In this document: positions 5,756 through 41,040 of the stretch, one piece after another | Layout of the letters: every line of letters starts with the position of its first letter | Numbering within the stretch: position 1 is the stretch's first letter | DNA from: an uncultured virus (IMG/VR IMGVR_UViG_2517287023_000001) | Taxonomy: Duplodnaviria > Heunggongvirae > Uroviricota > Caudoviricetes | IMG/VR virus record: IMGVR_UViG_2517287023_000001 | Length of the DNA stretch: 64,000 bases | Reading direction: 5' to 3' (one strand) | Program-made: the position numbers and the translations under genes | Notes under the pieces: generated by a model | The model's database searches: none | What the model was told of the DNA's origin: nothing | The model's input: the letters and a program-made list of their open reading frames with translations, nothing else

Positions 5756-6469
5756 TCACCTCGGAGTCGATGGCGCGTGCGGTCAGTGAAGGCGCTGGTG
5801 TCCAACGCCGTTGCCGCCGGGATGAAGGAGACGGCGCACACACGCACGGGGGATGGGCCCTTGACATCACCCGGTCATGTGCTGCAAGGTTAGGCGTCTC
5901 CACGAGACGGCACGAGGAGCGCCACCGGCGCCCGAAGTGCTAGCTCATCACCCCTATCAGGGATCGAAACACTCGCGGAGACAGAGGCACGAAAACGCGT
6001 TCGCCGAGCTTGGTCTCAGCGGACGCGTTTTTGCTGTTCGGCGTGCGGCTTCGGGTGCCACAGGATGGTAAAATTTCGCTCGCCGCCTACTCTCCGGTGC
6101 TGCCGCCGTGGCATGGCACCGGCTCCATTGCGGCGATGCGGGTCGTGCGACCTGTGCCGATTTCGGATGTTCCTTCCCTGGCCCTTTTGGGCCAGGGCTC
6201 CGAACTTTGCCCCTTGTGACCATGATGCATGGGGCCTGCCGGTGCGTGGGGCTCCCATCTCGAACCGAGCGGATGGGCCACCCGCTACGGGTGGGCCCCT
6301 CTCGCGCTGTCTCTTTTGTTTGCCTGTGGTGTGTGGCGCGGCCCGGGTGACCTCGACTGGGTAGTCGACCCCGCAGAGCGCGAGCCGGATGACGACTGGA
6401 CCCCTTGAGTGACAGCCAGCGACAGCAGAAACCAGTCAAGCGTGACCGTGGAGCCGGAGGGAGGACACC

Positions 6470-37861: not shown

Positions 37862-38108
37862 GCCTCACCCTCACCCCTGACTGCATGGAACACCATTGAG
37901 GGTCACATAAAATCCGCACAATGACGCTTGACTGATTCTATGTGACCGATTAGTGTGGGTGTTGGCAGGCAGCGAGCTTCCGAAGCAGTGCCCGCCACCG
38001 AGAGGACACTCAACCCCCGAACGGAGAAGCTGTGTACGTGACCCTCTCGGGGTCATGGCGGTGCTGATGATCCGCCACTTTGAGTTGCCGACCAAGGAGG
38101 TACCCGCG

Positions 38109-38390
38109 ATGACCGCACAGGACGACCAACAGGCGGCGGAACAGCGGATCGCCCTCAGCATCGCCGCGCACGGAGTCCGTTTGGATTCCGCGCGGCGGCG
38201 GACGGACTTGCGGCGATCGCTGGTCGAAATCGAGAGGGCGGCGGCGGAACTCTGCAAGGAGCTCGACACTGGTAGAAAGCTGTCTGGATCGGAACTTGTC
38301 AAGCTGGTGTCGCACGCCGCCACCGCGCAGTCACACGCGACCGCACTCTCTGTGCTGGAGTCCCTCGCGTGGGCTTTGCCCGATCAGTAA
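38109..38390 (+). CDS. Small helical hypothetical protein
   Basis: AAGGAGG RBS; downstream of operator 37908, directly upstream of the mini-array. Confidence 0.65.
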   Translation: MTAQDDQQAAEQRIALSIAAHGVRLDSARRRTDLRRSLVEIERAAAELCKELDTGRKLSGSELVKLVSHAATAQSHATALSVLESLAWALPDQ

Positions 38391-38474
38391 GTGGCCCCCG
38401 AACGGAGAAGCCGGGTACACACCGTGACTCTATGTCGCTCCTTCCCATCGGGTTAGGCGACTGCTAGCATGACT

Positions 38475-38643
38475 GAATTCCCCGCCAAGGCGGGGGTCAT
38501 CCGTCGCTTAGCACACGATGCGGGCATCACGGATTATTGTCCCCGCCAACGCGGGGGTCCCCACACCTGTGGGGGTGTATCGGTCGTTGGCCGTACCAGC
38601 CTCTTGGTTAGGGGCACTTCCCCACGCATGTGGGGGTGGAATC
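38475..38643 (+). CRISPR. Orphan fused double mini-array with degenerate type I-E-like 29-nt repeats and two 32-nt spacers
   Basis: Repeats 38475-38503, 38536-38558 (truncated), 38554-38582 and 38615-38643 have CCCCGC-N4-GCGGGG or CCCCAC-N4-GTGGGG cores; spacers 38504-38535 and 38583-38614. Confidence 0.8.
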
Positions 38644-38652
38644 ACAGCAGTC

Positions 38653-38677
38653 AGGACCCCCGGATACCGGGGGTCCT
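38653..38677 (+). terminator. Hairpin terminator closing the mini-array transcript
   Basis: AGGACCCCCGG-ATA-CCGGGGGTCCT. Confidence 0.7.
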
Positions 38678-38976
38678 AGCTTCTGTTGTGGTCAGTCGTC
38701 CGCGCGCACGCTCTAGGGCCCGGTCACTGCCCGGTATCAGCGATGTCCGTCCTCACTGTTCGCTCGCCTTCCGGGCCACCCACTCAGCCTTCAGCTACCA
38801 CCGCACGCACGGCGGTAGCGACCCCACGGGGGGATCGGATTCGCGCGGAACGGCGGGAAGCCGCCACCGTCGAGGCGGAGGTGACCACTACCGCCGACGG
38901 AAGAATCGCGGTAGTGGAGTCCACCTCTCGACTCGCACTCGCGGTCGCCTACAAGGCAGCGCGACGACCTCGGCGG

Positions 38977-39426
38977 TCACGCCGGTCGTTCCGGAGAGCC
39001 GGGCGGACGCCGGTAGGTGTCGATGACCGCGGCTTGGGCCGCCCAGGAGACGTCGATCTGGTCGCTCATGGCGCGCAGGGTGCCGAGCCTCGCGCGTATC
39101 AACTGGTGCATCTCGTCCAGTGCCGCCGCGGCCACACGTCCCGCGTCGGCGTCGGCAGCCCGTACAGCCGCGTGCGCTGCGGCGATCTTCTGCGCGCTGC
39201 CGTCCCGGCGCGCTCGAGTCAGCCGGCCCCGCGCGGCGCTCAACCGGCGCCGGGCCGCTTTGCTCTCCGCGTCGAGCTCGGCGAACCGGGCTCCGCCGAC
39301 GACGCTCTCGGCCTCGGCCACCACGATCAAGTCGTTGAGCTTGGTCTCCTCGGCCGCCTCGATCGCGCGGAGCTGCTCGCGTTGACGAGACAGCGGGTTC
39401 CGCGGCATCGGCAGATCGCCGCTCAC
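38977..39426 (-). CDS. Hypothetical coiled-coil protein
   Basis: Ala/Arg-rich helical ORF. Confidence 0.5.
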   Translation of the reverse strand: MSGDLPMPRNPLSRQREQLRAIEAAEETKLNDLIVVAEAESVVGGARFAELDAESKAARRRLSAARGRLTRARRDGSAQKIAAAHAAVRAADADAGRVAAAALDEMHQLIRARLGTLRAMSDQIDVSWAAQAAVIDTYRRPPGSPERPA

Positions 39427-39484
39427 TCGTCGCCGTCCGGGGTGGCAGCCGAGTCGAGGTCAACTACCAAAGGGATGTCCGTCT

Positions 39485-39829
39485 TCACTGTTCGCTCGCC
39501 TTCCGGGCCACCTGCTCGGCCTCAGCTACCACCGCACGCGCGGCGGTAGCGACCCCACGGCACGAATCGCACTCGCCGCACCGATCAGCCAACCGCATGT
39601 CGGCCAATCCCGCCAACACCTCGAACCGTTGCTGCAACTCCGCCTCGGATGAGGCGGACACCAACACGACCTTGAGGCCGGCGAACGACGTGGGATGGTC
39701 ACCCACATTGACCATCTCAGACACCGAAAACGCCGCCTCGTCGGCCAACTCCCGCATCTCTCCCACGGTGACGCCGAGCATCACGACCACCTGACCCGTC
39801 AGCGGGTCCGAACCCAATCTCCTGAACAT
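39485..39829 (-). CDS. Hypothetical protein
   Basis: AAGGAG RBS; its 3' end is duplicated near 38742. Confidence 0.55.
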   Translation of the reverse strand: MFRRLGSDPLTGQVVVMLGVTVGEMRELADEAAFSVSEMVNVGDHPTSFAGLKVVLVSASSEAELQQRFEVLAGLADMRLADRCGECDSCRGVATAARAVVAEAEQVARKASEQ

Positions 39830-41040
39830 CTATCGTCCAGCTCCTTCCCTGCCAAGCACAGCCGCCAAATACTCGGTCACCGCGTACGCGCCGACCTTCT
39901 GCATCGGATGATCAATCCACCGCTCCGCCGCCCTCAGATAGTCCATGACGATTGTCGAGTGCCGCGACCACCGTCCGGCATCCGCGATGCCCTCGATCGT
40001 CGCCCCTCGGCGTCGCAGCTCGGAGGCTCCACCGACACGCAGCGAGTGAAACGTGTAGGTGCTGGCGTGCGGGATACCAGCGGCCAGCACCACCGACTGG
40101 AACGCCATGTTAAGGCCCCGTGTCGACATCCGGCCGCTACTGTGCACCCGACCCCGCCCGCGTAGATGCTCCACGTCCCACCCCGGACACCCGGTTGTGC
40201 TGGTCGACAGCCCGCAGCAGGGGAGAGGTCCGGGGGCGCCACGCCCGATCAGATACGCCGCCCGCGCCAACGTCGCCTCCACCGGGGCACAGCGCCGGGT
40301 GGTGGTCACCCGACTCGGACTGCCAGTGCGGGATCAACGGATGCTCCGCGCTCCGAGCGTCCCAGTCGTGCCAGTCCCGACGTGGCCGTCGTGGGTTGGC
40401 ACACTCGCTCTGAGGCGTCCTAGGACGCGCTACCCGATGTGCCCCACAACTTCCAACGCGTGCAGCGGCGCACGTACCGCTGGCCCGGCGCACCATGCTG
40501 AGGCATCAGTGAACGAGGGGATCGCGATTGCCGAGTCCGATGTGCCGGACATGCTCGCGAAGGGCCTTGAGTCGTACCTGACGCGGCCGGCGCTGGCCCG
40601 GTCAACGGCGGCGGGTTGGTTCATTCCGTGCGCTCCTGACGTCCTCACCGAGTGCCTGCAACACCTGGCGGAACGTAGACGGGCACCGTCCACGATCAAC
40701 AAGCACAAAGCCGCGATCATGGCGTGGCATCGTTGCACGGACAACCGGTTCCCGACGGCGTGCCCGCGCTAGGTGTGTGCAGCGCGAGCATGAGCGTACC
40801 TTGGCGCGGCAGGGTTGGGTCAAGAAGCGTTCTTCCGCGTTGCGGATCGAAGACGCGGTGCGGTGTCTCAGTGTGTGTGACCGTGCTACTCCTCGGGGGA
40901 ATGCGTGACGCCGCGATGGTTTTGTTGGGTTTCGCGGGTTTGCTACGGGTGTCTGAGGCGCGGTCAGTTGATATCGGGTGGGGCCGGTGAGGAGGCCGAA
41001 GGGCTGGCGTTGCTGCTACCGGGCACGAAGACCAGTCGAT
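39830..41040. pseudogene. Scrambled Cre-like tyrosine recombinase relic
   Basis: C-terminus HSLRVGG..GRW..DY on minus strand (39830-40309); APSTINKHKAAI and RDAAMVLLGFAGLLRVSE fragments on plus strand (40630-40990). Confidence 0.75.

Follow-up and report, generated by a model that had tools for sequence, protein, structure and literature searches.

A candidate crRNA-like unit combining two type I-E repeat lineages on an actinobacterial phage-plasmid-like replicon

Anatomy of the RNA unit

The DNA stretch analyzed here (the window) comprises 64,000 nucleotides (nt) of the uncultured virus IMGVR_UViG_2517287023_000001 from IMG/VR and represents the first 64 kb of C2, the second replicon of the host genome G000, whose chromosome is C1. 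It contains a putative RNA unit that consists of four perfect hairpins with 6-bp stems and 4-nt loops at positions 38475-38635 of the plus strand. The start-to-start distances are 61, 18, and 61 nt. The hairpins form two pairs, starting at 38480 and 38541 and at 38559 and 38620, respectively, with 61 nt within each pair, and all 24 of the 24 stem pairs are intact while the flanking sequences differ. An earlier note on this DNA described the locus as two single-spacer units resembling CRISPR arrays of type I-E, and our reading of the sequence found all parts listed there (R1, S1, R2, R3, S2, R4, the promoter-like site, and the terminator) to be present.

All parts of the unit lie on the plus strand. 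The first half opens with R1 (38475-38503), a 29-nt look-alike of the repeat lineage A described below. It reads GAATT-CCCCGC-CAAG-GCGGGG-GTCATCCG and was assigned by its stem and handle, its last 8 nt (GTCATCCG) being the predicted 5' handle of unit 1. It is followed by S1, the 32-nt spacer-like segment of this unit (38504-38535), and by R2 (38536-38556), located 61 nt downstream of R1, which consists of ATTGT and the lineage-A hairpin CCCCGC-CAAC-GCGGGG without a handle and would form the 3' hairpin of unit 1. The second half begins with R3 (38559-38582), in which the lineage-B hairpin CCCCAC-ACCT-GTGGGG (38559-38574) precedes GTGTATCG, the predicted 5' handle of unit 2. Next come the 32-nt spacer-like segment S2 (38583-38614) and R4 (38615-38643), made of CACTT, the lineage-B hairpin CCCCAC-GCAT-GTGGGG, which ends at 38635 and is the predicted 3' hairpin of unit 2, and GTGGAATC. 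R3 and R4 are identical at 19 of 29 positions. The overlap of R2 and R3 described earlier is confined to the 5-nt flank of R3; the hairpins themselves abut, with a 2-nt linker, GT (38557-38558), between them.

In the type I-E repeat of E. coli, the hairpin is followed by the handle. If Cas6e cleaves at the 3' base of the hairpin, which we assume from E. coli type I-E, the unit would yield two 61-nt products, at 38496-38556 and 38575-38635, each composed of an 8-nt handle, 32 nt of spacer-like sequence, and a 21-nt hairpin end. The geometry is exact, 8+32+21 nt twice with zero spare nucleotides. Type I-E arrays have repeats of 28-29 nt with a hairpin of the CCCCGC-N4-GCGGGG type before an 8-nt handle, spacers of 32-33 nt, and a 61-nt period; the locus shows the hairpin with its handle (in R1 and R3), the spacer length, and the period. 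Two other features of such arrays, near-identical repeats throughout and I-E cas genes in the genome, were not found: the core common to R1 and R2 (95% identical) is just 20 nt long, and two lineages are mixed.

Upstream of the hairpins, sequence reading reveals a candidate promoter (38442-38470) with the hexamers TTCCCA (38442-38447) and TAGCAT (38465-38470) at a distance of 17 nt, from which transcription would start at about 38476-38478, just ahead of hairpin 1. The site is present as previously noted, but it matches the sigma-70 consensus at 8/12 positions, below the threshold of the consensus scan, and for this reason the scan did not list it. Downstream of R4, where a hairpin terminator had been proposed, the terminator scan indeed yielded the terminator-like hairpin AGGACCCCCGG-ATA-CCGGGGGTCCT (38653-38677) followed by AGCTTCTGTT (to 38687). 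It begins 17 nt past the R4 hairpin and has 11 pairs, nine of them G-C. It is present in the predicted folds of both strands, with the T-rich tail on the plus strand only.

The clustering of hairpins at this locus is beyond chance, as follows from their counts, their ranks in a covariance-model search, and folding. Hairpins of such form on the 78-kb C2 are just these four, and eight of the strict form occur in the 5.02-Mb chromosome (1.6 per Mb). A covariance model was built from nine natural I-E repeats of the genus and searched over the window; its top three matches, all on the plus strand, are R4 (38620-38638; 22.4 bits, E 3.7e-4), R3 (38554-38582; 20.1 bits, E 0.0019), and R1 (15.7 bits, E 0.039). 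R2 is represented in the list just by a weak minus-strand match (38541-38556, 8.9 bits). The region also folds far better than its shuffles, with z of -6.2 and -6.1 on the two strands.

One alternative has nothing to do with CRISPR and regards the locus as a cluster of common G+C-rich hairpins, of the terminator or structural kind, lying between convergent genes. Their position between the end of a plus-strand gene (38390) and the end of a minus-strand gene (38977), the strong folding on both strands, and the absence of Rfam matches (none at the gathering threshold in the window and none at E up to 10 at the locus; best score 18 bits versus a 106-bit threshold) are compatible with this explanation; tRNA or tmRNA genes were not found either. 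We disfavor it as highly improbable: the stems, loop size, handle bases, and 61-nt spacing fit the I-E repeats of the genus in one orientation only, hairpins 1-4 have no T tails, and hairpins of this form are as sparse in the chromosome as given above.

Correspondence to two type I-E repeat lineages of the genus

The stems of the unit correspond to two repeat lineages, which were scanned for in 150 other genomes of the genus. The lineage-A pattern, YCCCCGC-N4-GCGGGGRTNATCC, was found in 38 of these genomes, 24 of which contain at least six copies; the repeats, with the consensus CTGCT CCCCGC GCAC GCGGGG GTGATCC, form arrays with a 61-nt period. The lineage-B pattern, CCCCAC-N4-GTGGGGGTG, was found in 22 of the 150 genomes, with 9 to 85 copies in four of them (G099, G114, G118, and G123). 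Its consensus is GTCCT CCCCAC GCAC GTGGGG followed by GTGCTCCG or GTGTTCCG, again with a 61-nt period.

The cas genes were annotated at one array locus per lineage, in G122 for lineage A and in G114 for lineage B. The G122 locus contains all eight I-E cas families (cas3, cse1, cse2, cas7e, cas5e, cas6e, cas1e, and cas2e), and the G114 locus contains cas3, cse1, cas7e, cas5e, and cas1e, with cas6e detected by tblastn alone. Identity between the two loci is 31-33% for Cas6e, 34% for Cas7e, 42-44% for Cas5e, and 27-30% for Cse1; the lineages are deeply diverged. The lineage-A locus of G122 also contains a second pair of cas5e-like and cas6e-like genes (L046 4286-4954 and 5011-5571), 34-37% identical to the first. 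With such a pair, a single host might be able to process the repeats of both lineages.

The stem of R1 is identical to that of lineage A, and its handle matches GTGATCC(C/G) at seven of eight positions. The stem of R3 is that of lineage B, and its handle matches GTGTTCCG of G118 at six of eight positions. Comparison with the arrays of the genus, which share the 61-nt period and adjoin I-E cas operons in both lineages, bears out the earlier idea that the locus combines two single-spacer units, each matched to a different I-E Cascade.

A third I-E repeat variant, with the loop ACGC and a handle unlike RTNATCC, forms large arrays in G062 (C60) and G134 (C381). Each of these two genomes gave a single lineage-A match despite its full arrays; the pattern counts thus underestimate how many genomes bear I-E. 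They belong to ten genomes with a single lineage-A match that were checked, and in none of the ten was a hybrid module like that on C2 found. The others contained a five-repeat array (G113) and, in seven cases, orphan repeats or three-repeat arrays. Solitary and orphan I-E repeats are common in the genus, the host chromosome included.

Carrier replicon and gene neighborhood

The carrier is a phage-like replicon of a soil-type actinobacterium. C2 is 78,320 bp long (67% G+C) and accompanies a chromosome with 70% G+C in a genome of 99.99% completeness. Its gene products include the minor capsid and portal proteins of a phage, both terminase subunits (large and small), and an endolysin of the amidase type; a partition ATPase, ParA, is encoded as well. 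Among the ten best records listed, proteins from Streptomyces phages are 48-57% identical to the large terminase, which is 42-53% identical to those of ~85-92 kb plasmids from Streptomyces, Rhodococcus, and Prescottella (among the matches listed). Because of this combination of phage and ParA genes and the kinship of the terminase with both phages and plasmids, we class C2 as a phage-plasmid-like element.

The RNA unit is located in a 586-bp gap separating two convergent genes, a small plus-strand gene upstream (93 aa from the ATG at 38109, ending at 38390) and a minus-strand gene downstream (38977-39426). Pfam and PHROGs assigned a function to none of the neighbor genes, the protein atlas gave no usable match for the 93-aa protein, and relatives of the two flanking proteins were not found in IMG/VR. 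DNA similarity to the locus or its surroundings was absent from phage records, plasmid records, and 60 relatives.

Directly 5' of the candidate promoter, the plus strand contains a ~40-nt direct-repeat motif, CCCCCGAACGGAGAAGC.G.GTAC..CGTGAC (38395-38434). Its second copy is situated in the leader of the small gene (38014-38049), and there are just two copies on the whole replicon. The copies flank the small gene (38109-38390), and weaker collinear similarity extends to 38100 and 38493, respectively. A promoter-like site, TTGACT-17-TAGTGT (37928-37956), lies upstream of the motif copy in the long leader of the small gene. The direct repeat may represent an operator or the scar of a duplication.

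On the right-hand side of the RNA unit, a 90-nt duplication with 92% identity (38739-38829 and 39471-39560) brackets the gene 38977-39426; it reproduces the 3' terminus of a gene on the minus strand (39485-39829). An integrase-like C-terminal fragment (39830-40309, minus strand) adjoins it, and together they look like signs of local recombination.

CRISPR systems of the host and spacers against the element

Two CRISPR systems are present on the G000 chromosome: type I-C, whose array has 34 repeats, and type I-G, which has two arrays. Comparison of I-E proteins with this genome by tblastn yielded just weak Cas3 matches, to the Cas3 proteins of the I-C and I-G systems; Cas7e was absent from G000, and the positive controls G122 and G114 scored. 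An orphan lineage-A array is found on the minus strand of C1 at ~552,300-552,460. It has two repeats, one 33-nt spacer, and an A+T-richer leader-like flank, and it is probably a remnant of a lost I-E locus.

Traces of past contact with the element were found in a relative of the host. Among 427 distinct inter-hairpin segments from 32 I-E array loci compared with C2, one, from the lineage-B array of G123 (L047), matches C2 71418-71449 at 31 of 32 positions, with AAG, a type I-E protospacer adjacent motif (PAM), directly 5' of the match. Thus, I-E hosts of the genus have met C2 or a close relative. Other spacers of the same array match two regions of C1 (166-174 kb and 4008-4011 kb); these, too, may be mobile elements.

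The I-C array of the host itself contains, in two copies (C1 1457977 and 1458126), a 35-nt spacer that matches C2 75595-75629 at 34 of 35 positions. The sole mismatch is at spacer position 6, and the protospacer is directly preceded by TTC, which we take to be the PAM. This looks like self-targeting of a tolerated resident element and suggests either an inactive I-C system or an I-C inhibitor encoded by C2. Copies of the host I-C and I-G repeats longer than 14 nt were not found on C2.

Search for spacer targets

Targets suggested earlier for the spacers, whether in hosts, phages, or cas promoter regions, were found for neither S1 nor S2. Their longest match in the own genome is 14-15 nt, and the 274 other genomes of the genus gave no match when every sixth position was left free and up to three mismatches were allowed. 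The best E value was 3 in phage records, from unrelated hosts, and 3-9 in plasmid records; in IMG/VR and the JGI metagenomes there was no exact match on 22 specified bases. The missing virus or plasmid protospacer is a weak negative, as these collections hold few phages of the genus. A genus-wide pattern composed of a hairpin end, eight free bases, and the start of S1, with one mismatch, was as frequent as its reversed control.

The same searches bear on the possibility that the unit is an offensive mini-array, i.e., that S1 and S2 are true guides that borrow the Cascade and Cas3 of an I-E host of either lineage for use against competing phages or plasmids. Both spacers have the full length of 32 nt, both units have the 61-nt geometry of an interference-competent crRNA (CRISPR RNA), and virus-borne mini-arrays directed against related viruses have been described (PMC6858448). 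We nevertheless consider this possibility rather unlikely: none of the collections named above contains a protospacer, and the handles depart from the natural consensus, which may hinder formation of Cas3-competent complexes.

Another comparison is provided by a CreR-like candidate located upstream of cas3, and divergent from it, in G122 (L046 13495-13620 and 13740-13772, plus strand) and G012 (L071 ~6040-6260, minus strand). This host unit consists of a promoter, a degenerate repeat, a 33-nt spacer part, a second degenerate repeat, and a terminator; an AAG-flanked partial target with 20 of 28 paired positions is found ~210 nt away. At E up to 1e-6, the unit is present in two of 275 genomes of the genus. 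Positions 6-24 of S1 match the first 20 nt of its spacer part at 16 of 20 positions with one gap, and 4 of 2000 shuffles for G122 and 7 of 2000 for G012 equaled this match. The match is 5 nt out of register and was spotted after inspection of four intergenic regions, and the likeness is suggestive only.

Recurrence in other mobile elements

All species genomes were scanned for a lineage-A hairpin with a lineage-B hairpin at most 8 nt after it, the flanking hairpins being outside the search patterns. The scan yielded ten loci. In Actinoallomurus purpureus, the module has the order A-49-A, 2-nt linker, B-60-B, 9 nt, and terminator, with an A-to-B offset of 18 nt as on C2. The upstream flank of this module is a canonical lineage-A repeat, and its neighbors encode an integrase, a Prim-Pol, and a lysozyme, as in an integrated element. 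In G065, which belongs to the same genus as the host, a prophage carries A-50-B-60-A and a terminator near a siphovirus tail gene; G065 has no further I-E-type hairpins save one mixed-stem match. In both modules TANNNT-like hexamers occur 8-15 nt 5' of the first hairpin, and Cas7e was found in neither genome. The spacings of 49-50 nt, i.e., 61 minus 11-12, recall the shortened spacer parts of published regulatory RNAs.

Simpler arrangements were also observed. A lineage-A hairpin is directly followed by a full lineage-B-type repeat in L055, L058, and L063 (Micromonospora, Streptosporangium, and Planobispora), and in the Micromonospora locus a terminator-like hairpin lies ~50 nt further on. The 385-kb plasmid NZ_CP192095.1 of Nocardia sp. 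(L057) contains three tandem hairpins, A, A, and B, without spacers, which resemble pure decoys.

Recurrence is relevant to another scenario, in which pieces of I-E repeats and spacers were gained by recombination with host arrays and are now functionless and decaying. Such a relic would fit the lack of I-E in the host, repeat scores far below the natural ones, the rearranged stretch next to the unit (the 90-nt duplication at 38739-38829 and 39471-39560 and the integrase-like fragment at 39830-40309), the frequent solitary and orphan I-E repeats of the genus and the host chromosome, and the absence from phage and plasmid records, the 60 relatives, and IMG/VR of a related phage-plasmid copy that would show conservation. 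A relic does not readily explain the A-A/B-B composition, which is not obtainable from a single natural array, or the retention of every stem pair next to differing flanks, two spacings of exactly 61 nt, and a terminator. Moreover, the same design is seen on two other mobile elements. We consider this scenario unlikely.

Predicted function of the unit

We favor the reading, held with confidence that is evenly poised, that the locus is an RNA gene of the phage-plasmid and serves as a dual-lineage crRNA-like counter-defense unit. Transcription would begin at the weak promoter of the unit or read through from the small gene upstream, and it would stop at the terminator hairpin. The RNA would be inert in hosts that, like the present one, lack I-E. 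Where the host has I-E, hairpins 1 and 2 would be substrates for a lineage-A Cas6e, or hairpins 3 and 4 for a lineage-B Cas6e, with a cut after each hairpin, and each pair of cuts would release a 61-nt RNA (8-nt handle, 32 nt, and 21-nt hairpin end) that could be loaded into Cascade. Cas6e and Cascade would then be occupied, displacing the anti-phage guides of the host, and Cascade could possibly be re-aimed by the unit to some site. The unit would in this way be a counter-defense device with one key per I-E lineage.

A number of observations weigh against this reading. The first group concerns the host. A tblastn comparison using 13 I-E proteins of G122 and G114 detected no I-E cas genes anywhere in the G000 genome; the absence of cas genes stated in the earlier note for the locus holds and, for I-E genes, extends to the whole genome. 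In the present host, the unit therefore cannot act. The proposed match to Cascades of the host is to be read as a match to those of the host genus, which has both lineages. Cas7e is absent from all three module carriers (G000, G065, and G299). The second group concerns the RNA. No RNA run was found to cover the unit: the region 38440-38700 is covered by DNA runs of the probable source sample only; other runs (small-share soil, root, and others, with one RNA run among them) cover parts of 38764-39500, mostly the gene 38977-39426. The candidate promoter is weak by consensus, and no known anti-CRISPR or other gene with an assigned function was found beside the unit in Pfam, PHROGs, or the protein atlas.

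The third group of opposing observations concerns the repeats and spacers. The covariance scores of the phage repeats are 16-22 bits, versus 36-46 bits for natural repeats and 26-35 bits for decayed array ends, and with scores so far under those of natural repeats, the phage copies are clearly degenerate outside the stems. In the handle of R1, C takes the place of a G that is present in every natural lineage-A repeat listed. Both spacers have a length of 32 nt, versus the 21-24 nt given for CracrIE in the main text of the Cracr preprint (10.1101/2024.10.29.618823). Repression of cas promoters, suggested earlier as one use of the spacers, was not borne out: an unbiased spacer search over 12 I-E array stretches of nine genomes (195 kb) gave nothing above shuffles. 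Scans of cas promoters with the whole spacers and with their PAM-proximal parts, in 10 I-E array stretches from five genomes, were likewise no better than shuffles, and the PAM-proximal runs of 8-10 nt seen there are at chance level and outside promoter regions. Cracr arrays are defined by a spacer-like part that has a PAM-proximal match of at least 9 nt to a regulatory RNA of the host (CreR or CreA) or that matches the promoter of a cas or toxin gene; in the scanned I-E stretches, no such match better than shuffles was found.

A broader version of the counter-defense reading can be formulated, which we regard as doubtful. It holds that a conserved "two-key" cassette of actinobacterial phages and integrated elements disarms or re-aims either I-E lineage, and that the loss of I-E in the carriers reflects the action of the cassette. 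The predicted layout is an A-hairpin, a guide, an A-hairpin fused to a B-hairpin, a guide, a B-hairpin, and a terminator, in a single transcript of ~200 nt. The cassettes are in genomes without I-E in three of three cases, one of these genomes retaining an orphan I-E array. If this version is true, I-E would be lost not by chance, but, e.g., via selection against the I-E locus.

Comparison with known systems

The closest described relatives of the unit are Cracr arrays and Racrs; judging by anatomy, it appears to be a Cracr array minus the defining spacer match. According to the main text of the preprint, Cracr arrays produce crRNA-like phage or plasmid RNAs that are taken up by Cas proteins in competition with immune guides and act as repressors of cas or toxin promoters; type I-E is the most frequent, with 20 of 30 arrays, and within an array the units are directed at different variants of the same type (Liu et al.; 10.1101/2024.10.29.618823). 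As in the arrays described there, the locus on C2 has a phage-type carrier, several repeat- and spacer-like units in one presumed transcription unit, and no cas genes, and its units match, by sequence, different variants (lineages A and B) of one CRISPR type. Unlike those arrays, each of its units is built on a different repeat lineage (Cas6e identity of 31-33%), and the two are fused hairpin to hairpin; also unlike them, the locus has no match found to a host regulatory RNA or cas promoter. The carrier is actinobacterial, and no genus of this phylum is named in the main text of the preprint, the supplementary tables of which may list similar cases.

As a class, Racrs inhibit the cognate CRISPR-Cas system through aberrant subcomplexes of Cas proteins. 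RacrIE1 and RacrIE2 are solitary I-E repeat decoys and inhibitors of an I-E system from Pseudomonas (Camara-Wilpert et al., 2023; PMC10651486). In the aspects described in that report, the similarity consists in repeat mimics carried by mobile elements without cas genes, with a proposed tie-up of Cas6 and Cas7-type proteins. Unlike Racrs, described there as single repeats without a defined spacer geometry, the locus has four hairpins at exact crRNA spacing and two lineages; where a Racr is a solitary mimic with its own promoter, there are here four mimics and a candidate promoter scoring 8/12. No acr gene was recognized near the locus.

Two other groups share parts of this design. Virus-borne mini-arrays have spacers that match related viruses (Medvedeva et al., 2019; PMC6858448), and, as portrayed in that paper, they resemble the locus in having one or two spacers, host-like repeats, and a virus carrier without cas genes; here, the carrier is a phage-plasmid, there are two spacers, and the repeats are like lineages A and B of the genus. 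Unlike these mini-arrays, the locus has no target found, and its repeats are degenerate and come from two lineages. The host crRNA-like regulators CreR and CreA reside within cas loci and have matches to the promoter of a cas or toxin gene (Shmakov et al., 2023; 10.1101/2023.03.03.530964). In the form presented in that preprint, they have a similar order of a promoter, a degenerate repeat, a spacer-like part, a second degenerate repeat, and a terminator. The locus differs from them: it belongs to a phage-plasmid, and the genome that contains it has no I-E genes.

Full-text searches of the literature revealed no paper on mixed-lineage I-E modules or on such RNAs in actinobacterial phages; the Cracr supplementary tables may hold cases. 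RNA mimics of CRISPR repeats are a recently recognized means of phage counter-defense that has been tested mainly in Proteobacteria, and the locus would extend it to an actinobacterial phage-plasmid. What the papers compared here do not describe is the fusion of two diverged lineages of one CRISPR type in one minimal predicted transcript, a layout that recurs in a distant genus. The data also fit the picture of an arms race, in which the lineage-B array of a relative remembers the element, and the present host, having lost I-E, aims a duplicated I-C spacer at it. If both RNAs are processed by the respective Cas6e, the unit would represent natural lineage-specific multiplexing and could provide a compact scaffold for tests of I-E cross-talk.

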